From the NCBI GenBank assembly GCA_015233405.1, contig JADFXT010000003.1:54591-118590 (forward strand): DNA of 64,000 nt, written 5' to 3'. Below are positions 1 to 18,888 of this stretch, piece by piece. Positions within the stretch are counted from its first letter, which is position 1; each line of letters starts with the position of its first letter. The notes under the pieces are model-generated. The model was not told the DNA's origin, did not search any database, and saw only the letters and a program-made list of their open reading frames with translations. The translations under genes were made by a program, and so were the position numbers. Source of the DNA: Candidatus Omnitrophota bacterium. GTDB taxonomy: Bacteria > Omnitrophota > Gorgyraeia > Zapsychrales > Zapsychraceae.

Positions 1-2
1 TT

Positions 3-1577
3 TTACTTAACTTGTCTACCGAATCCCACGCGAACACTATTTTGATTTTGTTGCGTATTATACATCCCCTGTGTTGCCACAGGTTGTGTATTCTGTGCCA
101 TGGGTCCGTCGATAATCTGATGGCAATTGGAACAAACACCGCGGTATCCATGTGTCATGCCAGCATTGCTTGAAATCGGCGGTGCCTGTACGGGCATTTG
201 AGCAGCGACAGGCGCCATGGGATTATTTCCTTGATTATAAAAATTCGGCTGATTATTTTGATTTTGGTAATACGCACCACCGCGCGCCATGATCTGTCCG
301 CAATTAGGACAACGCGGAAATTCATTTGCCCCTTGTTGCGCGTACATTCTCCAATTGCAATTCGGGCAGAGGAAGAATCCCGTCGATTCCGGACCATTCC
401 AAAAATTAGGTTGGTTCGTCATTTGGTTCATCTGCGGTCTAACCTGGTTCATATTGGCAGCCTGTTGCCCGCCTTCTGACCACCAATTGATTGGTCCTTT
501 GTTCGACATATCTTTAGCCATAGGCGAGCCACAGTTCGGGCACGTCGGATAATTATTGCCTTGCATTGTTCCTTTCATTCGCCAATTGCAATTCGGGCAA
601 ACAAAAACTTGCTGTCCCCATCCAAAAGCAACTTGAGTGCCAGTATTCATTTGTCCCATGGTATCCGGGTCCGGCATAGCCACACCTTGCACCATAGCGC
701 CTTGCATATATCCCGGCATTGGGCAAGCTTGACCCATTTGATTCATTCCCATTCCACCTTGCATAAAGCCCTGTCGAGTAGGTAAAGGACACGTCGGAAC
801 TGCCATCGTATTCATGTCCGGCATACCAAATCCAGCGCCCTGCGCGGTTTGCTGCATCATACGAATACGGCAATTGGGACAAACAGGACAAACACCTGCG
901 GAATTCTGACCGGCCATAATATACTTACAACGAGGACAAAAATAATTGCAAAAAACCCCGCCTTGTCCGGGGCCAAAACCTGCCTGCATATTAGCTTGTG
1001 CATTGACAGGAGAAACCGGTCCGGCCATAACAGGTTGAGAAATCACATTCGTGGACGTCGGGGCTTGAGGCATCCGTGCTTGCCGATAAAGACTGATGGC
1101 CTTTCTTGAAGTTCCTGCATATCCGCCAAACACACGTATGCCAAACTGCATCAGGATATTATAACTTTGCTGGTCGATATTGTTGACGATGACAGCCTCT
1201 TCTCCTTTGCCAGCAACTAAATACGCGATCTGGGGATTGGGCACCGTGCCACGATAAGGATTTTGAACCGCCTGAACAAGTTTCTGCGATAACGGATTCA
1301 CGACCAGAAAATATTTGGACTCTTGCAAAGACGGCGACACTTTAGCGCTCAAAGACGGGCCATCGGCCGCGATAACGATTTTTCCACAGGCCGGATTTCC
1401 CGCATTCTGGTTCTGAGTCTCAGGAGCAAACAGCGCGTAAACTCCAACGATCAAGACAAGAAATATCGAACCAAAAATAAAATAAACATTCAGGTCGACA
1501 TCTTTGAGCCGCGCCAGGAGATCCTCAAACGGATTATCTTGGGCTTTAGTGTTTTTTGCTTTCAAATTTTTTTCCAT
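3..1577 (-). CDS. membrane-anchored NifX/NifB-C-like domain protein with zinc-ribbon array, M/Q/N/G/P-rich low-complexity region and C-terminal magnetochrome-type CXXCH
   Basis: 524-codon ORF, TAA at 3-5. N-terminal TM helix (VYFIFGSIFLVLIVGVYALF). Residues ~65-165 resemble the dinitrogenase FeMo-cofactor-binding (NifX/NifB-C) fold (KIVIAADG..YFLVVNP..AVIVNNIDQQSYNILMQFGIRVF). Three CPxC..CPxC ribbons (FCPRCKYIM..CPVCPNCRIRM; VCPNCNWRM..CPNCGSPM; LCPNCNWRM..CPNCGQIM). C-terminal HGYRGVCSNCHQI. Confidence 0.8.
   Translation of the reverse strand: MEKNLKAKNTKAQDNPFEDLLARLKDVDLNVYFIFGSIFLVLIVGVYALFAPETQNQNAGNPACGKIVIAADGPSLSAKVSPSLQESKYFLVVNPLSQKLVQAVQNPYRGTVPNPQIAYLVAGKGEEAVIVNNIDQQSYNILMQFGIRVFGGYAGTSRKAISLYRQARMPQAPTSTNVISQPVMAGPVSPVNAQANMQAGFGPGQGGVFCNYFCPRCKYIMAGQNSAGVCPVCPNCRIRMMQQTAQGAGFGMPDMNTMAVPTCPLPTRQGFMQGGMGMNQMGQACPMPGYMQGAMVQGVAMPDPDTMGQMNTGTQVAFGWGQQVFVCPNCNWRMKGTMQGNNYPTCPNCGSPMAKDMSNKGPINWWSEGGQQAANMNQVRPQMNQMTNQPNFWNGPESTGFFLCPNCNWRMYAQQGANEFPRCPNCGQIMARGGAYYQNQNNQPNFYNQGNNPMAPVAAQMPVQAPPISSNAGMTHGYRGVCSNCHQIIDGPMAQNTQPVATQGMYNTQQNQNSVRVGFGRQVK
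111..152 (-). other. magnetochrome-type heme-c binding motif (H-G-Y-R-G-V-C-S-N-C-H-Q-I-I)
   Basis: CXXCH preceded by H-x-Y-R-G, the same pattern as the two motifs in the 13838-14680 product. It matches the magnetochrome signature known from MamP/MamE/MamT. Confidence 0.7.
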
Positions 1578-1607
1578 ATTATCCCCATTTGTTGATTCTT
1601 AAGTTTT

Positions 1608-2213
1608 TTAGAATCCTTGATTTGGATTATTGCCTTTATAAATCGGACCATATTGAAACGCTGGCCCAAAAACCGGTGAACCCATTTGCCACGTTCCTTT
1701 ATTCGGACCCATCAAAGGGCCGTATTGATATTCAAAGGGAATCGTTAAATACATCTTTTGTCCATCCCTATAAATGTCGAGGAGAATCCCATCAGTATAT
1801 TTAACATTGTTCGCTATATTAACAAAAGCTTTCGCCGTAGGAACCGGTTTACGCCCTATAGAAACAATGACATCGCCCGTCTTAACACCATATTTAAGAG
1901 CAAGATCTTTCCCTTCATCTAAAACAAACATACCCTTGATCTTCCCGGGGATATTAAATTCTTTACGGATACTGCGCGTCAATTGAATGACCCTCATGCC
2001 GATCCAGGTCATGCTATCGCCGGGTTCAACAATCGCACCATTCGCCGCCACGCGTTCTGCAGGCTCTGGAAAAATCTCGAGCGAAGAAACAAGCCAGCAA
2101 ATCACAATAATAGAGAAGATGACAATTCCGGCAGAAAGTACAGGCTCTTTGCGAACGAATGCTATGGTTCGTTTTTTTATTTCTTCAAACTTTTTTTCAT
2201 TTTTTGTTTTCAT
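1608..2213 (-). CDS. TM-anchored single-PDZ-domain protein
   Basis: N-terminal TM (VLSAGIVIFSIIVICWLV) followed by a PDZ-like segment (WIGMRVIQLTRSIRKEFNIPGKIKGMFVLDEGKDLALKYGVKTGDVIVSIGRKPV). Sits between the protease gene and the CXXCH protein gene. Confidence 0.75.
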   Translation of the reverse strand: MKTKNEKKFEEIKKRTIAFVRKEPVLSAGIVIFSIIVICWLVSSLEIFPEPAERVAANGAIVEPGDSMTWIGMRVIQLTRSIRKEFNIPGKIKGMFVLDEGKDLALKYGVKTGDVIVSIGRKPVPTAKAFVNIANNVKYTDGILLDIYRDGQKMYLTIPFEYQYGPLMGPNKGTWQMGSPVFGPAFQYGPIYKGNNPNQGF

Positions 2214-2217
2214 AGGC

Positions 2218-3639
2218 TCACTGTAGTTTCACTAAAATTTCATCGGTTTTTCCGTTTCTTAAAATATGGACATTCACGCTGTCCCCTGAGCGAAAATGCG
2301 CAACGACTTTTCTGATATCATCAGCCGATTGAATGACCACACCGGCAATAGCCGTGACAATGTCCCCTCTTTGAATCCCGGCAAACCTCGCCGGAGATTC
2401 ATCCATCACACGATTGACCAAAACACCTTGGCCAACAGATATCCCAAATTGTTTAGCAATAACATCATTAATAGGCATGACCTCTAATCCAAAACGTATC
2501 GGAACCGGCGCATCTGTTGTCGTTTTAGGTAAAGCCGCGGCCAACAAACCTTTTTGGTTAACTGGTACAGAAAAATTTCGTTTAAGCGCCTGAGCAAGAA
2601 AATCCTTGCAGTCATTGATAGGAATAGCAAATCCCGTTCCGCTAAAAACTCCGGTTGGCGCATAGATAGCCGTATTAATCGCGATGACTTCTCCGTTTAA
2701 ATTGACCAACGGCCCGCCGGAGGAACCACGGTTAATGGGCGCATCGGTTTGAAAAAGATTTTCATAGCGAATGCCTTCGATCAAAACAGATTTTCGAATG
2801 CCGCTTAAAATCCCGCTTGTTACCGTTTGTTCTATGCCAAACGGACTTCCGACAGCGACGACATAATCGCCGATCTGGCTAAAGCTCGAATCCGCCAAAG
2901 CCACCTCTGGAAATGGGCCATCCGCTCGTAATTTAAGAACAGCTAAATCCAAATTAGGTTCCTGGGCCACAAGATCCGCTTTAATATCACGCGACGGATT
3001 GCCAAAAACGGTCACGACGATATCGGTCGCATCTTTGGTCACGTGGTAATTTGTTAAAACATATCCGCGCTCATCCACGAAAATTCCGGCGCCGACATTT
3101 TCATATCCTTTGTTTTCGATAAATTTATCAATGGTCCCGTCGAACGGCGGGGCAAATTGAAGGTTCTGGGCGTCAATGGTCGGACGAACAGGCGTGCGAA
3201 CAACCCGTCGGGCGTGGATATCGCAGACCGAAGGGATAATAACATTGACCGCATCTTTTAATGAATTCTGGAATTTGCTGTCCGTGTTCGCGACAAGCTG
3301 CATACCGCCGTTAGGTGTGGCCTTGGTAATAGCTGCGACGGAATAATTAGAGGTGTTCCGCTGATTCGCCACGAGCTGCATACCACCGTTTGGTGTGGCC
3401 TTGGTAATAGCGGCTGGTGTGGCCATTCCTGCCTGAACGACCGGACTAGGGAACTTCGGCTCGCCGACATTAGATGGATTAACCGGATTCTTAGCACCGC
3501 CATTCTCAGCCTCAATGCTATTCGTGATATCTTCCCGTCTCATCACGACCCAAAAAAGGAGCATGACCGAGATAATGACTACACCGACTATCCATGGGCC
3601 CAGCGGCTTACGACAAAATAGATCGTTTGAATCTTCCAT
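2218..3639 (-). CDS. TM-anchored trypsin-like serine protease with C-terminal PDZ (HtrA/DegP family; MamE-like, lacking CXXCH)
   Basis: Catalytic triad contexts are intact: TNYHVTKDA (His), DLAVLKL (Asp), GSSGGPLVN (Ser). One PDZ (GVLVNRVMDESPARFAGIQRGDIVTAIAG). N-terminal TM (WIVGVVIISVMLLFWVV). Confidence 0.9.
   Translation of the reverse strand: MEDSNDLFCRKPLGPWIVGVVIISVMLLFWVVMRREDITNSIEAENGGAKNPVNPSNVGEPKFPSPVVQAGMATPAAITKATPNGGMQLVANQRNTSNYSVAAITKATPNGGMQLVANTDSKFQNSLKDAVNVIIPSVCDIHARRVVRTPVRPTIDAQNLQFAPPFDGTIDKFIENKGYENVGAGIFVDERGYVLTNYHVTKDATDIVVTVFGNPSRDIKADLVAQEPNLDLAVLKLRADGPFPEVALADSSFSQIGDYVVAVGSPFGIEQTVTSGILSGIRKSVLIEGIRYENLFQTDAPINRGSSGGPLVNLNGEVIAINTAIYAPTGVFSGTGFAIPINDCKDFLAQALKRNFSVPVNQKGLLAAALPKTTTDAPVPIRFGLEVMPINDVIAKQFGISVGQGVLVNRVMDESPARFAGIQRGDIVTAIAGVVIQSADDIRKVVAHFRSGDSVNVHILRNGKTDEILVKLQ
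3286..3414 (-). repeat. in-frame 78-nt tandem duplication inside the protease gene (AAITKATPNGGMQLVAN x2)
   Basis: DNA segments starting near 3290 and 3368 are nearly identical (gctgcataccRccgttWggtgtggccttggtaatagc). The protein repeat has a 26-aa period. Confidence 0.85.
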
Positions 3640-3661
3640 TCTTTTCCCTCACCTCTATTAG

Positions 3662-3886
3662 TTAAAAAGCAAACTTATCCCCAGCTACAGGAGTATCCAC
3701 TCCGGTGCTTGGAAAAGCAGCCGGCATTGCAGCTTTGTTTACCGTGGTTGGAACATGGTGCAATTGATGGTGCCGGGTCTTTCCCTTAAATCTAAAGAAG
3801 ACGGCAGCAGAGATCAATGTACAGACACCTAGAATAATTAAAAAACCAAACCACGGATTAAGACACTTTTCTTTATTTCCAATCAT
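3662..3886 (-). CDS. small single-TM membrane protein, unknown function
   Basis: 74-aa ORF with a TM helix (WFGFLIILGVCTLISAAVFF) and a His-rich stretch (TRHHQLHH). GAGG lies upstream of the ATG. Tightly packed between the MamI-like and protease genes. Confidence 0.5.
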   Translation of the reverse strand: MIGNKEKCLNPWFGFLIILGVCTLISAAVFFRFKGKTRHHQLHHVPTTVNKAAMPAAFPSTGVDTPVAGDKFAF

Positions 3887-3905
3887 AACGACGCCTCACG
3901 AATAA

Positions 3906-4076
3906 TTATTTTTTACCTTTTGTGAGTTTAAGCCCTGTGTTAAGAGCGATCAGCCCGCCGATAAGAAGCGCAAGCGGAACAGATCCACGTAAAAAATCGC
4001 CGAAATTATCCCACCAACCGAAAATCCCGACAACTCCTAAAAGAGCTGCAATTGCTCCTCCAATAACATGTGCCAT
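3906..4076 (-). CDS. MamI-like small two-TM membrane protein (56 aa; below ORF-track cutoff)
   Basis: Hand translation: MAHVIGGAIAALLGVVGIFGWWDNFGDFLRGSVPLALLIGGLIALNTGLKLTKGKK. AAGGAGA lies 6 nt upstream of the ATG at 4076. The G..G...WW....FLRG.VP...L..GGL.AL pattern recalls MamI. Position immediately upstream of the protease mirrors the mamI-mamE order. Confidence 0.55.
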   Translation of the reverse strand: MAHVIGGAIAALLGVVGIFGWWDNFGDFLRGSVPLALLIGGLIALNTGLKLTKGKK

Positions 4077-4102
4077 TTGTTTCTCCTTTCATTACTGTTT
4101 AA

Positions 4103-4387
4103 CTAACCGTTTATAAATGTTACCCCGAATCCTCCTCGAGGATTTTCCCAAACAATTGCGCCATCTGTACAAACCACCCGGCAGCTTCCGCACTCAAGAC
4201 AATTTTCATATGAGGCTTCAATGGCGCCGCTTTTCTCTTCGTAGGTCTTCGCCGGACAAACAACAAGACACATCTTGTGCTCGCAGTGCTTACAAACTTT
4301 CTTGTTGATCTTGATATGGCTCGCTGCATCTTTCTTGGTCTTGACCAAAAAAAGCTTGTCATCTAAAGAAAGTTTTCCGGTTTTCAT
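4103..4387 (-). CDS. fixX: ferredoxin-like protein FixX
   Basis: 94 aa. CPAKTYEE...YENCLECGSCRVVC...WENPRGGFGVTF aligns closely with E. coli FixX/YdiT. ATGA overlap with fixC. Confidence 0.85.
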   Translation of the reverse strand: MKTGKLSLDDKLFLVKTKKDAASHIKINKKVCKHCEHKMCLVVCPAKTYEEKSGAIEASYENCLECGSCRVVCTDGAIVWENPRGGFGVTFING

Positions 4388-5697
4388 ATTAAATTACTCC
4401 ACGCGCCCCACATATCGGACGCGACACGGGTCAATTTCACGTTTTTCATGACACGATTAAAAATCTCTTTTTTAACAACGCTTTTGGGCTTTTCGGACAC
4501 ACGGAAATAATCCACCAGAATATCATTCATCAAAGTCGGATAATCGTTGATAAGGGATTTATGTTTATGCAAGAACGACAGAAAATTTTTGCAATTTTTT
4601 AAATCCTGCATGACGAAACTCGCCTTAAGTTTTTCTTCATATTGCGACAGCGCCTCAGCGGTAAAATCGTTCTTCTCCTTCGCCTCGATAATCGTTTCCG
4701 CAGCAGAAAGGCCGGAGGACATCGCCAAATTGACACCTTCATGGAAAAACGACGTATTTAAAAGTCCTGCTGCATCGCCGACGACCAATAGCCCATCCCG
4801 GTAAAGCTTAGGAAGATAATCAAACCCGTCAGACGGGATCATATGCGCCATATATTCGGTGGTTTCTCCTCCGCGCACTAAAGGGGCGATGACCGGATGG
4901 CTCTTAAAATCATCGAGAATATCATTCGGATTCTTTGCATTCTCACTTTTCATAAAATCGCTTAAAGAAAATCCAACGCCAACGGATAAACTGTCTTGGT
5001 TCGTATAAATAAATCCATTTCCCAAAAGCCCTTGGACGGAGGCACCAAAATATTCATAGGCCGCGCCTTGACGGTCCGTTAAGCCGAACCGGTCTTCAAT
5101 AACGCTTCGAGGCAGACGGATGTTTTCCTTGACCGCGATGGAACGACGGCCTGGACTAATTTTCTTACGAAGCCTTGCCTTTTCCGATAACAATGAATTC
5201 GCGCCTTCTGCACAGACAATCACATCAGCCAATAAGCTATCTTCATCTCCACCGCTTGTAATACCGACGACTTTTCCGTTTTCATAAAGAAAATCTCGTA
5301 CGCAGTAATTCGTGATAATGCTCGCGCCAGCCTCTTCTGCCTTCTTGGCCAACCATTGGTCCATCGAGCCACGCCGTGCCAGAAAGGAATGATTATACGG
5401 TGCAACGTTAAATGCCGCAGGCGTTAAATCAAACGCCATTTCGTTTTCATTCGCTAAAAGAGCAAATTTTCTTTTCCCGACGTAACGTTCCCACGGCGCG
5501 TTATCTAAGAAATCTGGGAAAAGTTTTTCCATGATGCTTGAGAAAAATATCCCTCCAAACACATTCTTCGCGCCAGGATATTCGCCGCGCTCAATAACGA
5601 CGACCTCTATCCCGCGTTTAGCCAGAGCATACGCACACGTCAATCCCGAAGGCCCTGCGCCGACAATAATAACTTCCATTTTATCAGTTTGATTCAT
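4384..5697 (-). CDS. fixC: FAD-dependent electron-transfer-flavoprotein:quinone oxidoreductase FixC
   Basis: 437 aa. VIIVGAGPSGL dinucleotide fold. Long colinear similarity to E. coli FixC (GAKNV.GG; LPRSVIEDRF.L...QGAA; GGGF/NGFIYTN; FK.HP..APL; VGDAAG). Confidence 0.9.
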   Translation of the reverse strand: MNQTDKMEVIIVGAGPSGLTCAYALAKRGIEVVVIERGEYPGAKNVFGGIFFSSIMEKLFPDFLDNAPWERYVGKRKFALLANENEMAFDLTPAAFNVAPYNHSFLARRGSMDQWLAKKAEEAGASIITNYCVRDFLYENGKVVGITSGGDEDSLLADVIVCAEGANSLLSEKARLRKKISPGRRSIAVKENIRLPRSVIEDRFGLTDRQGAAYEYFGASVQGLLGNGFIYTNQDSLSVGVGFSLSDFMKSENAKNPNDILDDFKSHPVIAPLVRGGETTEYMAHMIPSDGFDYLPKLYRDGLLVVGDAAGLLNTSFFHEGVNLAMSSGLSAAETIIEAKEKNDFTAEALSQYEEKLKASFVMQDLKNCKNFLSFLHKHKSLINDYPTLMNDILVDYFRVSEKPKSVVKKEIFNRVMKNVKLTRVASDMWGAWSNLI

Positions 5698-6115
5698 GAG
5701 AAAAATTCTCTAACTTGCCCGTTTGTTTGTTTATTTGTTTGTTTGGGAAAAACTTATCTCTGATGAGCGCCGCATACTTTCCGGAAACATATAAACCTTT
5801 TTTCAACGTCTCTGCAATATTCGTTCGACTGCGCCGCAAAATATGAGCGCGGGATTTTGTCGCCGTTTTTAAATGAATAGCCTCATGAACTGGCTCTTTA
5901 TCGTGAAGATTTGCTTCAGTATGATTATTTGATTTTATTTTCTTGAGGAGGTCTAGAACAGCTTCTCGGGGGATACGCTGATGCCCGCCTAATGTAGTGA
6001 CCGCTTTAAGCTTTCCTTGCTTGACCCAACTTAAGACGGTAAAACGGGTAACATGAAGAAGCTCTGCAGCTTGCGACGTTGTTAAAAAATTATGTGAGGA
6101 GGTTGGAGTGTGCAT
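5684..6115 (-). CDS. excisionase/MerR-superfamily helix-turn-helix DNA-binding protein
   Basis: N-terminal LTTSQAAELLHVTRFTVLSWVKQGKLKAVTTLGGHQRIPREAV (HTH_17-like). Paralogous to the N-terminus of the 17494-17952 product. First gene after a sigma70-like promoter. Confidence 0.8.
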   Translation of the reverse strand: MHTPTSSHNFLTTSQAAELLHVTRFTVLSWVKQGKLKAVTTLGGHQRIPREAVLDLLKKIKSNNHTEANLHDKEPVHEAIHLKTATKSRAHILRRSRTNIAETLKKGLYVSGKYAALIRDKFFPNKQINKQTGKLENFSHESN

Positions 6116-6150
6116 TTATTGTTGAAATAAAGATTAATAAAAGTGTTTGG

Positions 6151-6179
6151 ATTATAGGCAATCAACCAAAAAAAGTCAA
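6151..6179 (-). promoter_or_regulatory. sigma70-type promoter (TTGACT-17 nt-TATAAT) for the HTH-fixCX-mamI-like operon
   Basis: Minus strand reads ttgact ttttttggttgattgcc tataat. The -10 element lies ~36 nt upstream of the ATG at 6115. Confidence 0.5.
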
Positions 6180-6293
6180 TAAAAAATATTCGACCGGATT
6201 TTTTATAAAAGAGTGTTGAAAATGTTGAATGATTTCTTACATTTTCTCGTCTGGAAAGGCTTTTCTCGGCAAGAAAAATAAAAAAAGCCTAAA

Positions 6294-7313
6294 TTAATGA
6301 AACCCTGGTGTTTTGTACTGAACAATTTCACCATTTTTGCTTTCAATAACCAGGACTTCAACGCGCTTTAAAGCATGCGCTAAACGCAAGCCTTTTTCAC
6401 CACCTAAAACAGAAATAGCCGTTGATAATTCATTGGCCGCTTGGGTCGTATTGGCTACAACGGTGACACTTACGGCCCCTTTTTGAGGGTAACCGCTAAC
6501 AGGATCTATGATATGCGAGAACGCTTCAGAACCGATAGTATAGAATTTTTCATAATTGCCGGAAGTTGATATGCCCCTATCACTTAGAACTGTGGTGCAA
6601 TATAATTTCTCCTTGTTAAAAGGGTCCTGAACCCCTATGATCCAAGGTTTTTTCCCCTGATCTTTTCCTCTGCAAAATATCTCACCTCCGCCATCAACCA
6701 GAAAATGTTTGATCCTGTTTTTATCAAGTATTTTTGCAAGTTCATCGCAAACGAATCCTGAAGCAGGAGAACCAAGATCCACTTTCATTCCCGGTTTTTT
6801 AAAAGAAATAAAATCCGGAGCCTTAAGGCATAAATTCCGATAACCAACTTTATCTTTTGTTTTTTCTAATAAATCTTTATCCGGAAGTTTTCCTTGATCC
6901 GCAGATTTTTTCCATAATTCTACAAGCGGCAATGCAGTGATGTCATATGCGCCATTTGTCAGTTTAGAATATTCAATGGATTCTTTGATCACTTTAAACA
7001 CATCAGCCGTAACGCGCACCCCTTGAAATCCATCCGCATTTAATCTGCTTAGATCCCCTTCCATATTTTTTGAATGCGCATTCATGTGCAATTGAACTTC
7101 CTCAACTTTTTTCCAGCATTGATTAATAACCGATATAACATTTATCTTTGGGTCATAAAAAAAATGAATGCGCACATAAGCCCCTAAATAAGGCCTTGTT
7201 TCATCGTAATCCAAAAGTTTTTGTTTCTTAAAAGACGATCGAATTAGAAAGAAGAATGCACCGAGGATGATTAACAAAAAAATGTTGAGAATGTTGATAT
7301 GATTTGGGTTCAC
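6294..7313 (-). CDS. apbE: ApbE-family FAD:protein FMN transferase with N-terminal signal anchor
   Basis: 339 aa, ApbE-like throughout (YDITALPLVELW; DLGSPASGFVCDELAKIL; GGGEIFCRG; ISTSGNYEKF; HIIDPVSGYP). N-terminal TM (ILNIFLLIILGAFFFLI). Confidence 0.85.
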   Translation of the reverse strand: MNPNHINILNIFLLIILGAFFFLIRSSFKKQKLLDYDETRPYLGAYVRIHFFYDPKINVISVINQCWKKVEEVQLHMNAHSKNMEGDLSRLNADGFQGVRVTADVFKVIKESIEYSKLTNGAYDITALPLVELWKKSADQGKLPDKDLLEKTKDKVGYRNLCLKAPDFISFKKPGMKVDLGSPASGFVCDELAKILDKNRIKHFLVDGGGEIFCRGKDQGKKPWIIGVQDPFNKEKLYCTTVLSDRGISTSGNYEKFYTIGSEAFSHIIDPVSGYPQKGAVSVTVVANTTQAANELSTAISVLGGEKGLRLAHALKRVEVLVIESKNGEIVQYKTPGFH

Positions 7314-7347
7314 GATAGATTATTGAACGAGATTAGAGAACTCGTAA

Positions 7348-8130
7348 CTATAGAAACCTGAGGTATTTACGGCAAAGCCCAGTGAGAAACAGTGGAATAA
7401 TAAAAATACCAACAAATTCTTCTAGAATAGCAACAATTTTGTTGAATCCGATTGGAATTATGTCTCCATAACCAATGTGCGTGAAGGTAATTAAGCTAAA
7501 ATAAATGGATTCAAATAAATTCGGTTTGTGAGCAACCGAACTAACAAGAAAATGGCCCTGGGTATACAATAAAGCGGTCAATAAAATTAATGAACAGGCA
7601 AAAATAACTGTTCGCTGCGGGCGCTCTCCGTGGCCCCATAGGATGGAAGATATCGATAATAAAACCCAAGAGATAAAAAGCTTCATCCGTCCTTTAAGAT
7701 CAAATCCTTGATGATTCTTTCCGACATGATGAAGTCGTTTGGCATAAAATAAATGCGGCATCAGAGACTTTCGATAACATTCTTTGGAAAGAAAAAAGCA
7801 TTCTGAAAAACTGACATATTCCAGGTCGCGCTCATAACAAATCCCTGCATTTTTGTAAAGAATGCTCGCGTATTCATAATCGCCGGAGATGACCGCTTCT
7901 TCAGCGGCTTTTTCATAATACATCGACGCATAATAGAACAATGTCTGCCTGCCGCCTTGAAATTCACAGCAGCTCGCCGCGGAAGTAAAACAGATTGTTG
8001 CTTGTTTATGCTGTCCCTGGCTTTGATAAGACATGGCCGCTTGCAAAAAAAGCTTCGAAGCTTCCTCATATTTTTGAGCTTCAAAAAGCTTCTGCGCTTC
8101 TTGTTCTATATTTTTAATATCGTCGGCCAT
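7348..8130 (-). CDS. two-TM K+-channel-like protein with N-terminal TPR/SNAP-like helical-repeat domain
   Basis: Selectivity-filter-like SLITFTHIGYGD between two TM helices. The N-terminal ~115 aa are helical repeats (AQKYEEASKLFLQAAMSY..YYEKAAEEA..ASILYKNAGICY). The start overlaps the STAS stop (TAATG). Confidence 0.75.
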   Translation of the reverse strand: MADDIKNIEQEAQKLFEAQKYEEASKLFLQAAMSYQSQGQHKQATICFTSAASCCEFQGGRQTLFYYASMYYEKAAEEAVISGDYEYASILYKNAGICYERDLEYVSFSECFFLSKECYRKSLMPHLFYAKRLHHVGKNHQGFDLKGRMKLFISWVLLSISSILWGHGERPQRTVIFACSLILLTALLYTQGHFLVSSVAHKPNLFESIYFSLITFTHIGYGDIIPIGFNKIVAILEEFVGIFIIPLFLTGLCRKYLRFL

Positions 8131-8468
8131 TATGTTCCTAAATCTTTCATTGCCATTTCCCGATGTTCATAAATCGGGATCAATTTGTGGATCTTTGTGA
8201 TTTCAAACAGCCCCTTTACGTCTTTATTAACATTACAGATCGCCAGTTTTCCGCCGGATTTCTTAAGCATTTGCATCATTTCTATGAGTGTCGCAAGCCC
8301 GGCGCTGCAGACAAACGTCACCTTTTCAAAATCAACCAGGACTTTGGTCGAGCCTTCTTTCAACATTTTTAGAAATGATTCGCGTAGCGCGATGGAGTTG
8401 TCCACGCTCAATTCCCCATCCATGGTCACTACAGTAATGCCGCTTATTTTCTCAACCAGTATTTTCAT
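8130..8468 (-). CDS. STAS-domain anti-sigma-factor antagonist (SpoIIAA/RsbV-like)
   Basis: 112 aa, typical STAS layout (LVDFEKVTFVCSAGLATLIEM) with a candidate phospho-Ser. Confidence 0.85.
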   Translation of the reverse strand: MKILVEKISGITVVTMDGELSVDNSIALRESFLKMLKEGSTKVLVDFEKVTFVCSAGLATLIEMMQMLKKSGGKLAICNVNKDVKGLFEITKIHKLIPIYEHREMAMKDLGT

Positions 8469-8480
8469 TTTCAGCCTCCC

Positions 8481-8882
8481 TTATTGCTTCAAAAATTTAG
8501 TCATCTTTATTGTCCGGCCCTCATTGGCGAACTCTAATTTATCCATGACATTTTTTATAAGAAATATCCCTCTGCCGCTTAACTTTTCTAAATTTTCCGT
8601 TTTGACAGGGTCAGGAATCTTTTGATAATCAAAGCCTTTGCCTTGATCCGTCACTTGAATGGTTAGTTGATTCTCGTCAGATGTAATCTCAACCTGCACC
8701 GATAAACGCGGGTCCATTTTATTGCCATGTTTAACGGCATTGACAATCGCTTCATATAACACGAGCTTAATATTAAAAATAGTGCTTTGGTCCAAAGCCA
8801 ATGGAGACAGTTTCTCCAGAATTGAAGAAACAAATCCGTTTATAGGCGCAACTTGCGAAGGTATGGTCTCAAATATATGCAT
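8481..8882 (-). CDS. anti-sigma regulatory factor / Ser-Thr kinase (RsbW/SpoIIAB-like, HATPase_c)
   Basis: 133 aa with EAIVNAVKHGN (N-box), DQGKGFD (G1) and GRGIFLIKNVMD (G2). Confidence 0.85.
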   Translation of the reverse strand: MHIFETIPSQVAPINGFVSSILEKLSPLALDQSTIFNIKLVLYEAIVNAVKHGNKMDPRLSVQVEITSDENQLTIQVTDQGKGFDYQKIPDPVKTENLEKLSGRGIFLIKNVMDKLEFANEGRTIKMTKFLKQ

Positions 8883-8943
8883 AAAGGTTGCAGTAAATTA
8901 TCAAAAAAACTCCGACGCGTCAAATAAAAATATCCCTTACCCT

Positions 8944-10887
8944 TTAAATAATCTTAACAACAATAAAAGTGATATCATCCGACTGCTTATGTTGCGGCTC
9001 AAATTTCCGGACATCTTTTTCAATCGAGGACAACAATCCTCTTGCGGGGAAATTCCGGTCTTTTTCAATTGTAGAAATCAGCCGTTCCTTGCCATACATT
9101 TGGCCCTTGGCGTTTCTCGCTTCTGTGATCCCGTCGGTATAAAAAACAAAAATGTCGCCGGAAGAAAATGCGATCTGTCCGCCGGAGTAAGTGCTTTCGA
9201 GCATCCCTAAGGGGTATCCGTCTTCCACATCCAAAGCTTTAGCGGAAGCGCCCTTGGGCAAATATAAAACCGGCAGATGCCCGCCGTTGGCGTACGTCAT
9301 GATCTTTTTATCCATGTCGAATATGGAATAATAAAGCGTGACAAATAATCCTGTCGGAGAGTCCTGGGTTAATTTTAAGTTTAAATTGTGAAGCGCCTCA
9401 TGCGGCTTGGTTTCGGACAAAGCGAAAAATTTAAACGCGCCCGAAACCGTGGTCATAAAAAGGCTGGCCGGCATGCCTTTTCCGGAAACGTCGCCGATCA
9501 TGACGCCAAGCCGTTTAGGGCTGAATTCATAAAAATCATACAAATCCCCGCCGACCTCACGGGCCGTATACATGATGGCGGCGATATCAAGCCCGGCGGT
9601 CATAGGAAGCGTTTTAGGAAGGAAACTCTCCTGGATCTTCTTGGCAATTTTCATTTCATTCTCGACGAGGATTTTCTTCTTCCACTCGCGGATGGAGATC
9701 ATCAGCGTTGAAAGCAAATAAAGCGCCACCAACGCAAAGAACGGATAAAACATATCCACCCAAATTCCGAATAAAATGAACAATAAAATCGCCAAGACGC
9801 TATAGGAAAAAATCGTGCCGGCTAATATCAAAAAACTCTTAAATGGCTTGGTGGCAAATACGCCCCAGACGATCAACGCGCCTAATAAAAACAAAATGAC
9901 CTGGTTGGTTTGCTTTGAGGCGCGGACGATAAATTGTTTATTCAATATAGAATTAATAATGTCGCTGTGCACCGCAAGCGCCGGATAAAGCGCGGAGAAC
10001 GGGTTAGGATGCAGGTCTGCCGTGCCGGCGGCGGTGAGTCCTACAATGCAAATTTTGTCCTTAAAAACATTTAAATCCAGCGTCGGCTTTTCTCCTTTTT
10101 TTAAAGAAACATAAGACTGCAAAATATCCACAAAAGAATAATGTTTATAATATCTGCCCCAATCGCCGGCATAATTCACGATCACATTTGAATTTTCATC
10201 CACCGGGATCCGCATCTTGCGGCCCAATTGAATATAGCGACCAGGATAAAGCTTTAGATCTTTAGCAGATAACCCCAAATAAGCAGAGATTAAACGAAGC
10301 GAAAGATATGGATGAAGCGTGTTTCCATATTCAACCAAAAGCGGAACGCGCCGATATTTTCCGTCGGGGTCTGGGATGACATTAATATGCCCGATACCTG
10401 CAGCCACTTGCCTGAAATTTTCTAACGTTTGGGCCGTATAACCCTTTGCCTCGATGACCTTTTGTTTTGGCGTATTGTCCAGATCAAAAACATATGGCAA
10501 ATAAACATTACCCGTGGTCTTGATCGCCTGTTCCAATTCTGGGTCGCCATTGCCTTTCTCCGAGAAGAAAATATCCATCAAAACGGCTTTGGCGCCATAT
10601 TCAGACAAAGCCTTGATCAAAACAGCATGATACCCTCTGTCAAAAGGGAATCGCCCTAATTTGGCGATAGAATCTTCACCAATTTCAACAATTACAACTT
10701 TATCAGATGTGAATACGAACGGACGGAGATGAAAACGAAAGTCTAATGCGCCAAGCTCACTATTTTCAAAAATGCGAGCATGGGAACCGCACAAAAGAAT
10801 GGCAGCAAAGGCGAGAAAGATAAGGACCAACAAAACGTTTTGAAACGCAACGGCCAGCAAATCAAGAATTTTTTTCAGATTGACCAT
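8944..10887 (-). CDS. CHASE2 sensor domain / PP2C (SpoIIE-type) serine phosphatase
   Basis: 647 aa. N-terminal TM plus CHASE2-like region (VVIVEIGEDSIAKLGRFPFDRGYHAVLIKAL..DIFFSE). Three to four TM helices. C-terminal SpoIIE/PP2C region (IQESFLP, GGDLYDF, GDVSGKGMPASLFM, YTDGITEA). Confidence 0.9.
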   Translation of the reverse strand: MVNLKKILDLLAVAFQNVLLVLIFLAFAAILLCGSHARIFENSELGALDFRFHLRPFVFTSDKVVIVEIGEDSIAKLGRFPFDRGYHAVLIKALSEYGAKAVLMDIFFSEKGNGDPELEQAIKTTGNVYLPYVFDLDNTPKQKVIEAKGYTAQTLENFRQVAAGIGHINVIPDPDGKYRRVPLLVEYGNTLHPYLSLRLISAYLGLSAKDLKLYPGRYIQLGRKMRIPVDENSNVIVNYAGDWGRYYKHYSFVDILQSYVSLKKGEKPTLDLNVFKDKICIVGLTAAGTADLHPNPFSALYPALAVHSDIINSILNKQFIVRASKQTNQVILFLLGALIVWGVFATKPFKSFLILAGTIFSYSVLAILLFILFGIWVDMFYPFFALVALYLLSTLMISIREWKKKILVENEMKIAKKIQESFLPKTLPMTAGLDIAAIMYTAREVGGDLYDFYEFSPKRLGVMIGDVSGKGMPASLFMTTVSGAFKFFALSETKPHEALHNLNLKLTQDSPTGLFVTLYYSIFDMDKKIMTYANGGHLPVLYLPKGASAKALDVEDGYPLGMLESTYSGGQIAFSSGDIFVFYTDGITEARNAKGQMYGKERLISTIEKDRNFPARGLLSSIEKDVRKFEPQHKQSDDITFIVVKII

Positions 10888-10954
10888 GATAAAAAATTAG
10901 TCCTTTTCTTGTTTTGCCAATTATAACATTTCTTTTATAAAAGAACAGAATATT

Positions 10955-11890
10955 CTACAGGCGCAAATCCTTCTCTCTGGAATAAACCGAACATTTCTTG
11001 CATTTATTGATCTTCTCTTCAGCCGTACCCTGCATTTGTCCATCGCACCAGGTGTAATCCACATCCCAGCATTTGACCCCATGATTGGGAAACGCAGGGC
11101 ATTGAACCTGACGCTCCGCCGGACAATTTAAGATGTCCCAGCAAGAAGACTTTAAAAGATTTTTACAATAATCCTGTAAATCATTCGTCCGCTTTTTCAT
11201 TCCGTTTATCAAGCGGTCCCAGTTTTCTTTATTTTCCAACTCCTTAGAGAATGGCCTTTTCTCGATACCTTCCAGAAAACTCTCGACACTCCAGCAATAA
11301 TTTTTTAAGGTGTCTAAAAGACGATTTATTCGTAAGGTCACCTCTTCATCCGGCATTGCATCTCTCCAGACCTCAAATCCCCCCAGCACCCTTCCTCGTT
11401 TATCAATGAGCGGACCAGCTGTAACAATGATCGTATGCTCGCGATCGAATTTGTCCTGAACCTTGACCCTTTTACCAATGACGGACTTCTGCGTCGTCAT
11501 AGCTTGTTTAATAGCACAATTTTTCTCGCACAAATCGCTATTAAACACTCTCATACACTTGACTTTTCCTATGGCATCATTTAATTTCAAGCCTGTAAAA
11601 TCAAGGCAAGCCGGATTCATATATTGGATCTTCATGTTTTTATCCACGACGAAGAACGGATAACTTGAGGCCCGCAAGATGCTAGCAGCGAAAGAAGACA
11701 TCTCTTCAAACTCATCAAAGACTTTTGCCTTGGAAGATAAAAATTCCAGAAAATTATTATGCTCCCCACTTTTAGGCTCAGCTTTCTTTTGAGAAAACCG
11801 CGTCTTTTCAGAATCTTTTTTATCGACGGGATCCGGAACATTTTTCAAATCTTCAATGACTTGTACCATCCGATAGAAATTCATTGCCAT
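10955..11890 (-). CDS. PAS-domain protein with C-terminal Cys-rich module containing two CW dipeptides
   Basis: PAS-like core (FFVVDKNMKIQYMNPACLDFTG...TAGPLIDKRGRVLGGFEVWRD). C-terminus CWDILNCPAERQVQCPAFPNHGVKCWDVDYTWCDG...CKKCSVY. Confidence 0.75.
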   Translation of the reverse strand: MAMNFYRMVQVIEDLKNVPDPVDKKDSEKTRFSQKKAEPKSGEHNNFLEFLSSKAKVFDEFEEMSSFAASILRASSYPFFVVDKNMKIQYMNPACLDFTGLKLNDAIGKVKCMRVFNSDLCEKNCAIKQAMTTQKSVIGKRVKVQDKFDREHTIIVTAGPLIDKRGRVLGGFEVWRDAMPDEEVTLRINRLLDTLKNYCWSVESFLEGIEKRPFSKELENKENWDRLINGMKKRTNDLQDYCKNLLKSSCWDILNCPAERQVQCPAFPNHGVKCWDVDYTWCDGQMQGTAEEKINKCKKCSVYSREKDLRL

Positions 11891-11944
11891 TATGGCCTCC
11901 TTATATTAAAAAACGCTATTTTGTCATCCCCACTCTATATTGCT

Positions 11945-12021
11945 GTCATTTCCGAAATCTTTTATCGGGAATCCATGTTTTAAACCCTTGTGGATCCCCG
12001 ACTAATGCATTCGGGGATGAC
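11945..12021. repeat. palindromic MITE/REP-like element, subfamily B (77 bp)
   Basis: gtcatttccgaaatcttttatcgggaatcc ... ggatccccgactaatgcattcggggatgac: two hairpins with terminal inverted GTCAT/ATGAC. Near-identical architecture at 40098-40182. Confidence 0.85.
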
Positions 12022-12042
12022 AGCGGTTAGAGCTTGTTGAGA

Positions 12043-12948
12043 TTACGCTGGCTCAAAAAAGAAATCAACTTCACCGATGGACGGAAGATTACGAATAACC
12101 GACTTCTTCATATCGTCCATGGCCACACAGACTTCCTGAAGAGTACCCGTCTTGGGACAGCGAAGACTGATGCCGACCCAAAATTTCTTGCCCACTCTCT
12201 TAAACTTGATACTCCCTGGTCGATATTTAGGATAAGCGGACAGGATCATCTTTTCTATGCGAAGCGCGAACCCCGGTTCAGGAACCTGGTCCAGGATGTT
12301 TCGCACATTAGAAGCCCAATGACTCAAAGAATCTTTAACAATGACCACACCGACGATGAGAGCTGCTAACCGGTCGCAGACGGCAAAATCAGCCCCCATC
12401 TGAGATAAAATGATCCCTAAAATCACGGCACTTGAAGAAAGGACATCTGCTCCGGCGTGACAACCGTTTGCAATCAGTCCAGAGCTATCTAACCTTTTGC
12501 CGGCGCAAAAATTATACCGTTGGATCATATAGGTCAGAAAGACCGACGCTACGGCAACGGGGAGCGCCAACACAATATCCGGTTGGACAAAATCACGTCT
12601 AAGAATGGCCAGAATGCTCGAAAGCGTAATAGAAACGCCAAACCCGATCAAGATACTAAACGCGATAAGCGCGACGATAAATTCAAGTTTCGCATAACCA
12701 TACGGAAATCGAACATCATTCGGCCGACTGGAAAATGACAAGCTCACCATAATGAGAATGCTCGTCACAACACAAGCGATGGATTGAATTCCGTCGGCGA
12801 TCATCCCGGAACTGTTGGCGAACGTTCCACCGGCAAGTTTTATTACGACCAAAACAGCATTGCCGATGACTGTCCAGACGAGGATTTTCTTTGAACACGC
12901 CCAACAGCCTTCTGTCGTCATACAGGAATTTGCATTTTTTGAAATCAT
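12043..12948 (-). CDS. cation diffusion facilitator transporter, MamB-like (N-terminal CxxC)
   Basis: 301 aa with CDF topology. N-terminal CWAC parallels the CxxC of MamB. TM2 ADGIQSIACV. TM5 NGCHAGADV (HxxxD retained). PYGYAKLEF loop. C-terminal cytoplasmic domain. Confidence 0.8.
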   Translation of the reverse strand: MISKNANSCMTTEGCWACSKKILVWTVIGNAVLVVIKLAGGTFANSSGMIADGIQSIACVVTSILIMVSLSFSSRPNDVRFPYGYAKLEFIVALIAFSILIGFGVSITLSSILAILRRDFVQPDIVLALPVAVASVFLTYMIQRYNFCAGKRLDSSGLIANGCHAGADVLSSSAVILGIILSQMGADFAVCDRLAALIVGVVIVKDSLSHWASNVRNILDQVPEPGFALRIEKMILSAYPKYRPGSIKFKRVGKKFWVGISLRCPKTGTLQEVCVAMDDMKKSVIRNLPSIGEVDFFFEPA

Positions 12949-13835
12949 ATTTTTTCTTCCAGCCTAATACCAATGAACACTTCATGGGGGCTTAAAAATT
13001 TTACCTTTACCGCTCTTTTGATGTTCTCTGCGATAGCAAAAACGTCCACCATGGGAATGTCTTTTGCCGTCGACAGATCAGCGATAATTTCGTAGATGTG
13101 GCCGATCTTGTTAACGCGTAACGCCTTTAACGACGCTTCACCTATCTGTGCTTTACGGATACAACTTTCGACCTCGGAAACAGTTTTCTTATCGCACGAG
13201 GCATCCATCAGCCCTATAAAGGCTTTATATAAAAATAAAACACTGTAGGCGATGATAAAGAACGCCGCAAAAATAGCGCATCCATAATCAACAATGTAAG
13301 ACCCCATCCTCGATATTACGACGGTAAGGATGGTCAAGACCGAAAGCAGGAAATCTGTATCCAGAATAAAGATAATATCCTTCGATTCGTCTTCTTCCTG
13401 AATATTGGTTATCTCGGCCTTGATTCTTACCATAAACACTAAACTGATCGTAGCAGCGATCGCCGCAACCCACGCAGCCAGAAATTCTGGCGGATAAAGC
13501 GTGTGAAAGAAAATCATATGGCCTAAAGAAAAAAGAAGGGCGCTGGTGCTTAAGGCGATAACTGACGATATCGCCAAAAGGATCATGAATTCAAGCTTGC
13601 CCCGGTTAAAATATGGCGATAGCCGTCGGGAAGAATGCGTTATACCGATGCGCATCAAGGTGGCAATGGCTATCAAGATACCAAAAATCGCGAAGATGCC
13701 GGATACCAATAAACATTTTGAGCCCGTGATGACGCCTAAAACAGTCTTAAACAAAAAAGATGTTATAAAAAAATATAATAAGGCATAGGTGATCCGCTCT
13801 TTCTTTTCTTTAAGGAAATCTGGTTTCTTTTTCAT
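12945..13835 (-). CDS. cation diffusion facilitator paralogue with degenerate transport-site residues (MamM-like partner?)
   Basis: CDF-like layout (NRGKLEFMILLA loop, C-terminal domain). TM2 reads LVSGIFAIFG, lacking the D/H pair. The ATG at 13835 is preferred over the track GTG at 13859 because it lies 2 nt after the upstream stop. ATGA-type 4-nt overlap with the downstream CDF gene. Confidence 0.75.
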   Translation of the reverse strand: MKKKPDFLKEKKERITYALLYFFITSFLFKTVLGVITGSKCLLVSGIFAIFGILIAIATLMRIGITHSSRRLSPYFNRGKLEFMILLAISSVIALSTSALLFSLGHMIFFHTLYPPEFLAAWVAAIAATISLVFMVRIKAEITNIQEEDESKDIIFILDTDFLLSVLTILTVVISRMGSYIVDYGCAIFAAFFIIAYSVLFLYKAFIGLMDASCDKKTVSEVESCIRKAQIGEASLKALRVNKIGHIYEIIADLSTAKDIPMVDVFAIAENIKRAVKVKFLSPHEVFIGIRLEEKI

Positions 13836-13837
13836 CG

Positions 13838-14680
13838 TTATCCCTGGATTACATGGCACTTAGAACAAATCCCTCGATATTCATGCGGCGCCTGCGCATT
13901 TGCCGGTATCGCTGGGACATTAGGGGTCATAATCACATGACAATTTTCACAGACGCCGCGAAATTCATGCATCATAATTGCATCACGCAAAATGGCCGGC
14001 GCCTTTGTTTGTCCCGGGATTGGCTTCGTTAAAGCAACCGTCCGCGCTCCAGGGAATACACATCCATTTCTGCCCGTATACGCAATCTGCTGGCCAGCAC
14101 CGCCCGTCGTGGCAGGAGGAAAACATTGGGTAACCGTCGGACATGTCATACAACCCGGCGGAATATACGCCGCTTGTTGACCGGCCTGCGCCTGCCACTG
14201 ATTAAAAATTTGCGTTCCCGTTGGACAATTGGGTTGAAAGGCTATTTGTTGTCCACCACCCGTTGCCGGAGGAAAACATTGGGCAACATTGGGACACACC
14301 GCACAATTCGGTGGAACATACGCAGCCTGTTGTGCAGCGCCTGTTCCTTGAGGAAAACATTGTGTGACCGTTGGGCACGTCATACAACCCGGCGGAATAT
14401 ACGCCACTTGCTGCGGCATGGACTGCCACTGATTAAAGTCTTGAGCAGCGGTTGGATAATTCTGCTGAAACGCGACCTGCTGAGAGCCTCCCGTGGCAAT
14501 AATCCCTTGCTGGGCAGGATCTTGAACGGGCACCGGTTTGGGCCGCATATTAAAAAGCGCAAAGCAGAAAAATGACGTGAGCCCGACGACAGTAAGCCCT
14601 ATCATCCATAAACTTTTGGCATTGATATTCGCGCAGGAATCGTCTGCGAAAAATATCTCTTCTTTTTTATCGTTCTTCAT
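13838..14680 (-). CDS. TM-anchored double-magnetochrome (2x CXXCH) protein with Q-rich CxxC..C repeat region
   Basis: 280 aa. N-terminal TM (LWMIGLTVVGLTSFFCFALF). Repeats of PPGCMTCPTVTQCFP type. C-terminal MHEFRGVCENCHVI and PHEYRGICSKCHVI. Confidence 0.85.
   Translation of the reverse strand: MKNDKKEEIFFADDSCANINAKSLWMIGLTVVGLTSFFCFALFNMRPKPVPVQDPAQQGIIATGGSQQVAFQQNYPTAAQDFNQWQSMPQQVAYIPPGCMTCPTVTQCFPQGTGAAQQAAYVPPNCAVCPNVAQCFPPATGGGQQIAFQPNCPTGTQIFNQWQAQAGQQAAYIPPGCMTCPTVTQCFPPATTGGAGQQIAYTGRNGCVFPGARTVALTKPIPGQTKAPAILRDAIMMHEFRGVCENCHVIMTPNVPAIPANAQAPHEYRGICSKCHVIQG
13841..13972 (-). other. two tandem magnetochrome-type heme-c motifs
   Basis: H-E-F-R-G-V-C-E-N-C-H and P-H-E-Y-R-G-I-C-S-K-C-H, about 28 residues apart. 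Confidence 0.75.
14078..14482 (-). repeat. in-frame ~234-nt (78-aa) super-repeat inside the double-CXXCH gene
   Basis: QQVAFQQNYPTAAQDFNQWQ..QQVAYIPPGCMTCPTVTQCFP versus QQIAFQPNCPTGTQIFNQWQ..QQAAYIPPGCMTCPTVTQCFP. DNA blocks near 14117-14180 and 14351-14414 are nearly identical. Confidence 0.8.
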
Positions 14681-14774
14681 GAAAAACCCCTTTCATTTTA
14701 ATCCCTCCGTCCCCCTTATACTGATGGGGGAGGTTATATATTGTCACAATCCAAGGAACACAATTGTTTTGCCT

Positions 14775-14897
14775 GTCATCCTCAACTTCCTCGATGTTGT
14801 ATCTAGAAATGATTGGGGATCCATTAAATGCTTTTAGGTCCTAAGCCCCTACAGGAGGACACCTTCTGGATCCCCGCCTAAAGATTGCGGGGATGAC
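14775..14897. repeat. palindromic MITE/REP-like element, subfamily A (123 bp, left arm degenerate)
   Basis: Starts gtcatcctc, contains the core ggggatccattaaatgcttttaggtcc, and ends ggatccccgcctaaagattgcggggatgac. The right arm is nearly identical to that of 36178-36283. Confidence 0.8.
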
Positions 14898-14989
14898 AGA
14901 AAAAGATCAAGGATAAGACCTATAATTTTCATCATTTCCACAAAAACGGGAATCCACTCTTTAAAAAATAAAAATCATATAACCAGACA

Positions 14990-16281: not shown

Positions 16282-16284
16282 CCG

Positions 16285-16419
16285 TTACTCCAATCCAATA
16301 CAGGCCATGCACATGGTGGCCCCGTTGTTTTGTGTCTCGAGAGGTTCGTTGTTATTGTCTCCGATAAGGAAAAAAATAAACGCCAAAAAGAAGACGACAA
16401 TCACGACTATCTTTTTCAT
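16285..16419 (-). CDS. possible 44-aa exported/membrane peptide with C-terminal CMAC (below ORF-track cutoff)
   Basis: Hand translation: MKKIVVIVVFFLAFIFFLIGDNNNEPLETQNNGATMCMACIGLE. The stop lies 4 nt before the NapH-like ATG. No homology claim is made. Confidence 0.3.
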   Translation of the reverse strand: MKKIVVIVVFFLAFIFFLIGDNNNEPLETQNNGATMCMACIGLE

Positions 16420-16439
16420 AATCAAACATCCTTCCAGAT

Positions 16440-16790: not shown

Positions 16791-16792
16791 GC

Positions 16793-18100: not shown

Positions 18101-18119
18101 ATATTATTTTAAACCCCCT

Positions 18120-18881: not shown

Positions 18882-18888
18882 CGGTTGT

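Follow-up and report, generated by a model that had tools for sequence, protein, structure and literature searches.

The FixC and FixX proteins normally act as a pair (FixCX) that passes electrons from metabolism to membrane quinones, and the canonical Fix/EtfABCX complexes, in which the pair is joined by the two subunits of an electron-transfer flavoprotein (ETF), have their roles in nitrogen fixation or in anaerobic energy metabolism at large. For magnetite and greigite, in turn, the Fe(II)/Fe(III) ratio has to be kept under control, and in Magnetospirillum control of the iron redox state is tied to denitrification, to oxygen respiration and to the magnetochromes. How electrons are supplied to, or disposed of from, biomineralisation in fermentative or strictly anaerobic, deep-branching magnetotactic bacteria is, to our knowledge, not known. 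Here a fixC-fixX pair is described from a 64,000-nucleotide stretch of a Candidatus Omnitrophota bacterium (GCA_015233405.1, contig JADFXT010000003.1, positions 54,591 to 118,590; hereafter the window), where it lies on the minus strand at 5697..4103, directly ahead of homologs of the magnetosome genes mamI and mamE. What is new is a predicted magnetosome gene cluster with its own FixCX, or in related lineages FixABCX, module.

The nearest solved relatives of both proteins are chains of EtfABCX from Thermotoga maritima, a flavoenzyme associated with the membrane, in which NADH is oxidised and both ferredoxin and menaquinone are reduced (PMC10734219). FixC of the window matches chain 7KOE_C at E 8e-92 in a colinear, full-length alignment (residues 7-433 against 5-434), and FixX matches 7KOE_D at 1.5e-19. 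As in the Thermotoga complex and in Azotobacter FixABCX, FixC is full-length, FixX keeps all eight cysteines, and in sister magnetosome clusters, described below, the four genes stand together; unlike those systems, the window and the other Omnitrophota loci hold the CX half, and it heads a magnetosome operon behind a gene for a helix-turn-helix (HTH) protein. Single-chain ETF:quinone oxidoreductase (ETF-QO; PDB 2GMH, E 2e-25) shares the flavin adenine dinucleotide (FAD) fold and the 4Fe-4S logic, but it is a single polypeptide carrying one cluster and works with ubiquinone, whereas the present system has two genes, two clusters and, presumably, menaquinone. Likeness to FixC and FixX of the carnitine-locus fixABCX of E. 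coli is at the level of the family (37% identity for an enterobacterial locus, L014, related loci being designated here by L and a number), while the scores lie well under the cut-offs for those proteins, fixAB is missing here and the gene context is unrelated.

Among cluster-encoded magnetosome proteins, those proposed to control iron redox state are the magnetochromes MamP, MamT, MamE and MamX, together with MamZ, the NapH-like Mad6 and the ferredoxin-like Mad9, the last two being redox-control candidates (PMC4287615, PMC9840458). FixCX resembles them in being encoded in the cluster, but none of them is a flavoprotein:quinone oxidoreductase. In the accessible literature, a scope outside which papers in subscription journals lie, neither FixC, FixX nor ETF was found in published mam, mad or man gene inventories, nor was a link found between FixC, ETF or a flavoprotein and magnetosome clusters; within that scope the pair is, as the original prediction for this locus supposed, undescribed as a cluster component. 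Nor did targeted searches of Lin 2018, Lin 2020, Uzun 2020, Uzun 2022 and the GdbMTB paper yield a connection of Fix or ETF with magnetosomes. According to the accessible text of Uzun et al. 2020, metagenomes 3300017971 and 3300017963, from which sister loci were recovered, are acknowledged there as data sources, and sister clusters may already have been drawn in published figures with their fix genes unnamed. An equation of fixC, fixX and the HTH gene with mad3, mad4 and mad5 was considered and rejected, Mad3-5 having been described with hydrophilic metal-binding termini and never as flavoproteins; for mad14-16 of greigite clusters no functional description was found in the accessible literature.

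The two genes could be assigned to their families with confidence. FixC (5697..4384, minus strand, 437 amino acids) is the FAD subunit of an ETF:quinone-oxidoreductase-type pair and matches the NCBIfam models PRK10157 (E 1e-97) and PRK10015 (4e-99), with Pfam matches to DAO and FAD_binding_3 and weak ones to ETFQO_UQ-bd and Fer4_ETF_QO; on an identical protein (P0001), which NCBI lists from a Candidatus Omnitrophica metagenome-assembled genome, the C-terminal FixC domain PF26311, ETF-QO_FixC_C, is annotated. A separate look-up of FixC by exact sequence gave no hit. Its FAD-binding motifs, IIVGAGPSG (GxGxxG), E36 and GDAAG (GD), are invariant in an alignment of 24 sequences (A1). FixX (4387..4103, minus strand, 94 amino acids) is ferredoxin-like, matches PRK15449 at 1e-12, and carries the motifs CxxCx4Cx3CP and CxxCxxCx3C for two predicted [4Fe-4S] clusters, of which all eight residues (Cys 32, 35, 40, 44, 63, 66, 69 and 73) are invariant in 40/40 members of the clade defined below. 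No second FixC was found in the 64-kb window.

The pair is packed into a block of minus-strand genes, and the whole region from an ApbE gene to a 524-residue protein at the window edge reads in this direction. The first gene of the block (6115..5684, 143 amino acids) encodes a DNA-binding protein of the HTH_17, or excisionase/MerR-like, kind (Pfam HTH_17 8e-12; NCBIfam "excise" 3e-13), with a weak match to MamR (2e-4) that is below cut-off. It overlaps fixC by 14 nucleotides, the upstream fixC start codon and hence this overlap being supported by residues D5 and K6 of FixC, which the alignment consensus retains; the fixC stop and the fixX start share an ATGA (4 nucleotides), and fixX is separated by 26 nucleotides, with an AGGAG ribosome-binding site among them, from a mamI-like gene (4076..3906, 56 amino acids; NCBIfam MamI 2e-12, below cut-off). 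Homologs of the latter in related loci fall in Pfam PF26391, MamI. Spacings of -14, -4 and +26 nucleotides thus join the pair to core mam genes as in an operon. Next come a small membrane protein of 74 residues (orf74, 3886..3662; 51% identical in L001 and 37% in L002) with no family match in Pfam or NCBIfam profile searches, a mamE-like HtrA protease with a PDZ domain (3639..2218, 473 amino acids; Trypsin_2 2.5e-29, PDZ_2, and NCBIfam MamE 1e-70, below cut-off), a MamP-like PDZ protein without haem motifs (2213..1608, 201 amino acids), and the NifX-like/zinc-ribbon/magnetochrome protein of 524 residues (1577..3; Pfam MCR 1e-7, Nitro_FeMo-Co 1e-5), which is conserved in L001, L107 and L109-L111.

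Ahead of the HTH gene, in the 178 nucleotides that separate it from ApbE, lies the site TTGACT-17-TATAAT (6179..6151, minus strand). It matches 11/12 positions and is the best site in the 8.2-kb region, in which 18 promoter-like sites were counted against 16 +/- 4 in shuffled sequence, i.e., no excess. The hexamers are conserved in position, as TTGACC/TACAAT in L001 and TTGACA/TATAAT in L107, and we infer that the site acts as the promoter of the HTH-led block. A scan of the 8.2-kb region found no terminator-like hairpin between genes of the block. About 35 nucleotides upstream of the -35 hexamer stands a direct repeat, TTCAACA-N2-TTCAACA (6229..6214, minus strand), which is kept in L001 (CTCAACGTTTTCAACA) and in part in L107 and is a candidate operator at which one of the HTH proteins could bind; the HTH protein of the block probably regulates its own operon. 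The family assignment, the two overlaps, the 26-nucleotide gap and the promoter-like site had all been given in the original prediction, and each was borne out.

Comparison with other genomes showed HTH-fixC-fixX to be a conserved 5' module of the predicted mamAB-like operon in magnetotactic Omnitrophota. With the window proteins as tblastn queries, the order HTH-fixC-fixX-mamI-orf74-mamE-PDZ-magnetochrome was recovered in L001, L002, L027 and L028, the last two being short contigs, and gene tables gave the same order for five more Omnitrophota contigs (L107-L111, FixC 67-76%). Over these nine loci FixC identity to the window spans 66-84%, with L001 at 84% and L002 at 66%. L001 is the metagenome-assembled genome nDJH15_bin13, which is among the magnetotactic genomes of Lin et al. 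2020 (Omnitrophota, class koll11, order UBA10015); L002 is a complete Omnitrophota chromosome (CP070807.1) in which CDF, mamA-like and mamQ-like genes follow further downstream. With three added loci, 10/12 loci of the Omnitrophota subclade are cluster-linked, and the adjacency that had been noticed in the window is therefore not peculiar to this genome. Genes on the 5' side of HTH are PP2C/anti-sigma/STAS, K+ channel and ApbE genes in the window, L001 and L107, sigma-70 and PilZ genes in L108, rbfA-truB-ribF-fmt-gap-ubiA in L109, and feoB-feoA with ApbE in L110; because these flanks differ among loci, the conserved block is delimited at the HTH gene, with fixCX inside it.

The linkage extends beyond the Omnitrophota. 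A sister group of FixC proteins, at 50-54% identity, is also encoded in magnetosome clusters, in dozens of loci from sediment and hypersaline metagenomes, some NCBI records of which are labelled Planctomycetes. Here the typical order starts with etfB, an etfA that encodes an N-terminal ferredoxin domain, HTH, fixC, fixX and a Zn-peptidase gene, and then PDZ, trypsin, a small gene, CDF, rhodanese, mamI, mamA-like, mamQ (LemA) and CDF. A third architecture was seen in L045, a high-GC contig with a mamP-like gene, two CDF genes, mamA, a PDZ-CitMHS (mamN-like) gene, mamQ and TauE ahead of fixC and fixX, and with dtxR/feoA, feoB, etfB and etfA on the 3' side of fixX. Synteny with mam genes is thus kept across sequence divergence and three architectures, and because the linkage of fixCX survives such rearrangement, function is favoured over an inherited neighbourhood.

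A distance-based (neighbour-joining) tree of 88 non-identical FixC sequences, taken from scans of genomes and metagenomes, placed all cluster-linked FixC in one clade (bootstrap 100/100), which contains subclades of Omnitrophota (90/100) and of the Planctomycetes type (100/100). Within the clade 32 sequences are cluster-linked, 4 probably linked on short contigs, 5 not assessable and 1 not linked; outside it none is linked or probably linked, 18 are not assessable and 28 not linked. Linked or probably linked loci therefore make up 36/37 of the assessable members and 0/28 of the assessable outsiders, many of which are canonical etfBA-fixCX loci, and apart from L029 and L112, discussed below, the clade's proteins recur in clusters of several lineages and are phylogenetically separate from non-cluster homologs. 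The FixC clade thus appears essentially specific to magnetosome clusters. Distances between FixC proteins track those between the neighbouring MamE-type proteases (Mantel r 0.958, with 0/2000 permutations as high), also within subclades (r 0.55 for 8 loci and 0.92 for 19). Relative to L001, FixC is the best conserved protein of the operon (84%, with MamE at 76% and HTH, the lowest of the block, at 48%), and its pN of 0.096 is the lowest in the operon, which is read as purifying selection; synonymous sites are saturated, which leaves pN, in place of dN/dS, as the informative measure.

Possible electron partners are indicated by the sister clusters. All four fixABCX genes stand together in L022-L026, L044, L051, L056 and others, and etfBA is usual in the group, with ETF genes missing from some deep branches (L019, L036 and L037). 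For the cluster in L022, EtfA has its best solved matches in CarE (3e-124), followed by 7KOE_B, 5OL2, 4KPU and LctC, and EtfB in LctB, 5OL2_B and 7KOE_A (about 1e-62 to 1e-66), as compared with 1e-47 and 1e-29 against non-bifurcating ETFs; judged by sequence similarity of the L022 proteins, the sister-cluster EtfAB would be of the bifurcating type. In the Omnitrophota loci examined the CX half occurs by itself, and no etfAB was found within 7-10 kb of fixCX. Iron-uptake genes are also associated with the pair, in that feoAB adjoins fixCX of the clade in three arrangements, L045 (10125..12818), L110 (1..1531) and L112, the feoA of these loci being a dtxR-feoA fusion.

Our preferred explanation, to which we assign a probability of about 0.6 overall, is that HTH-fixC-fixX forms a dedicated 5' module of the magnetosome operon with a quinone-linked role in magnetosome iron redox chemistry. 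A dedicated place for fixCX in these clusters is highly probable from synteny, clade membership and co-divergence; the redox mechanism, taken by itself, is a tentative proposal with not quite even odds. According to it, FixC with its FAD and FixX with its two [4Fe-4S] clusters would sit on the cytoplasmic face of the cell membrane or the magnetosome membrane, as in Thermotoga EtfABCX, and would exchange electrons between a cytoplasmic carrier, which in this genome could be an ETF encoded elsewhere or ferredoxin, and presumed menaquinone. The quinone pool would in turn communicate with lumenal iron through a NapH-like (Mad6-like) protein, the putative quinol-side partner of FixCX, and through magnetochromes encoded in a second operon and in the gene at 3..1577, so that the FixCX-quinone-magnetochrome chain would set the Fe(II)/Fe(III) ratio for a mixed-valence mineral. 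Either direction of flow would fit: a ferric precursor could be partly reduced, or electrons released by oxidation of Fe(II) could be disposed of. Such a point of electron entry or exit is consistent with the gene content because EtfAB resembling the bifurcating type are present in the sister clusters, feoAB is linked to the pair, and NapH-like and magnetochrome genes are nearby. The original prediction had interpreted the pair in much the same way; the part of it that places fixCX in the mam operon stands, while the iron-redox role is one that we still infer.

If this explanation is right, the clade-specific FixCX or FixABCX would be a concrete candidate for the link between cytoplasm and quinones that serves iron redox balance in anaerobes, the physiological roles of Fix/EtfABCX would extend beyond nitrogen fixation and core energy metabolism, and the findings would bear both on redox control of biomineralisation and on electron-bifurcating flavoenzymes. 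The gene pair may also help as an added marker when magnetosome clusters of the Omnitrophota type or the Planctomycetes-labelled type are sought in metagenomes. A bolder variant would have a cluster-borne bifurcating FixABCX, reduced to FixCX in the Omnitrophota, use magnetosome iron as one bifurcation arm, either with lumenal Fe(III) re-oxidising the quinol made by FixCX or with Fe(II) oxidation feeding quinol into confurcation, and the organelle would then be a redox buffer or battery and not just a compass. This is a long shot, and if true would mean that biomineralisation is thermodynamically coupled to the making of reduced ferredoxin or NADH.

Several observations weigh against the preferred explanation. 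A tblastn search of the 64-kb window gave no homolog of ETF alpha or beta (E > 0.2), the absence of fixA and fixB having already been remarked in the original prediction, and the complete FixABCX gene set is accordingly wanting in the window. FixC scores below the curated cut-offs of its models (327 bits against 610 for PRK10157, 332 against 466 for PRK10015), as does FixX (48 bits against 166 for PRK15449, with Pfam Fer4_ETF_QO also below its cut-off); because of this the two are placed within the families but not as equivalogs of E. coli FixC and FixX. Peptide patterns drawn from clade members served to recruit the metagenome loci, so that the outsiders are a convenience sample, and many contigs are short. 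Two Omnitrophota loci, moreover, are unlinked: L029 has fixCX in the context nikR ... fixCX ... amt, glnA-type, with no mam genes in reach, and L112 (1..7200) reads fur-feoB-feoA-fixC-fixX-CDF-rrf2 without mamI or mamE. The intact pairs in these loci imply that FixCX has a function independent of magnetosome genes.

These same two loci speak for a general iron-handling or energy module, acting for example in cytoplasmic ferric reduction or Feo-linked trafficking, which would accompany iron genes, those of the magnetosome cluster among them, and lie outside any lumenal redox chain, and feoAB beside the module in L045 and L110 would fit it as well. Such a module would not by itself account for the presence of nearly all assessable clade members in magnetosome clusters or for the conserved gene order at the head of the operon, and in the tree L029 and L112 fall at separate places among linked relatives, as would be expected if their fixCX had become detached secondarily; such a general module is regarded as unlikely. 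The constancy of the HTH gene raises another thought, namely that HTH and FixCX together form a redox-sensing device in which the flavin or Fe-S state, following the quinone or NADH pool, would govern the HTH protein and thereby operon transcription, with no bulk electron flow. An HTH_17 homolog lies beside fixC, generally preceding it, in nearly all cluster-linked loci and in 0 non-cluster FixC loci, often placed between etfA and fixC; the 14-nucleotide overlap of the window recurs in L019 and L021, and the direct repeat upstream of the promoter is conserved. Yet HTH is the least conserved protein of the block (48% against 84% for FixC), it lies 5 kb from fixC in L022 and L025, and the sister clusters retain a complete, presumably catalytic FixABCX, all of which makes the device distinctly improbable.

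The remaining alternatives leave magnetosome redox chemistry aside altogether. Ordinary housekeeping fixCX genes could have come to lie beside mam genes by common descent of the gene order and without any functional tie, and FixCX pairs with no ETF genes alongside are indeed common outside the clade too (for instance L004, L005, L069, L074, L078); but the linkage persists through three architectures with varying flanks, the clade is specific to clusters, and FixC diverges in step with MamE, and a housekeeping role is given slightly less credence again than the sensing device. It is scarcely credible that the FixC-like protein is instead a lipid reductase of the geranylgeranyl-reductase type that remodels magnetosome membrane lipids. 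Matches to that superfamily exist, as secondary ones (TIGR02032 at 1e-33, 3OZ2 at 7e-13), but the first scores 117 bits against a cut-off of 159 and both are far weaker than the matches to FixC (1e-97, and 8e-92 over the full length of 7KOE_C), and the C-terminal PF26311 domain, the obligatory FixX partner and the EtfAB genes alongside in sister clusters all speak for a Fix protein.

Other genes in and around these clusters were recorded. The ApbE gene (7313..6294, minus strand, 339 amino acids; Pfam ApbE 3.5e-67) encodes a FAD:protein FMN transferase with an N-terminal membrane anchor in the window. It stands directly upstream of HTH-fixCX in five Omnitrophota loci (window, L001, L031, L107 and L110) and is absent from that position in L002, L108 and L109, being a neighbour outside the conserved block; no [ST]GA[ST] flavinylation motif was found in the magnetosome open reading frames of the window. 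The 524-residue protein at the other end carries a Nitro_FeMo-Co domain of the NifX/NifB type and, at its C-terminus, a magnetochrome CxxCH motif, together with several CxxC zinc-ribbon repeats that lie in a region rich in Q, N, M and G, and the combination of NifX-type, zinc-ribbon and magnetochrome parts was also found in L108-L110. In L107-L110, some 6-8 kb downstream of fixC, SirC-like NAD_binding_7, Cytochrom_C_asm and GlutR/HemA genes follow the magnetochrome genes, and these predicted haem/sirohaem and cytochrome c maturation functions suggest a local supply of haem for the magnetochromes. In the Planctomycetes-type clusters (L019-L026, L034-L068, L088, L100) a rhodanese gene lies between CDF and mamI, and Zn_peptidase_2 directly after fixX; neither was found in accessible published mam, mad or man gene lists. 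A rhodanese sulfurtransferase would fit an iron-sulfide (greigite) mineral.

The second magnetosome-type operon of the window (17952..12043, minus strand) likewise begins with an HTH_17 gene (17952..17494), paralogous to the HTH gene of the fixCX block (38% over 52 residues, E 5e-10). It continues on the same strand with a NifX-like protein (17497..16793), the NapH-like, Mad6-like polyferredoxin (16281..15433; Pfam Fer4_5 6e-16), a PDZ protein (15436..14990), a double magnetochrome protein of 280 residues (14680..13838; Pfam MCR 9e-13 in two stretches), a 304-residue protein and, after it, a CDF transporter (12948..12043). Between the two operons, at 7348..11890 on the minus strand, are genes for a TPR/K+-channel protein, a STAS anti-sigma antagonist, an anti-sigma kinase-like HATPase, a CHASE2-SpoIIE (PP2C) protein and a PAS protein, which make up a predicted partner-switching signalling set; L001 and L107 keep, at the corresponding position, the part that runs from the PP2C phosphatase to the K+ channel. 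Over the whole window (1..64000) the minus strand carries nearly all long open reading frames, GC skew stays below zero all along and its cumulative curve declines monotonically to -3.9, a pattern consistent with a single replichore of co-oriented genes.

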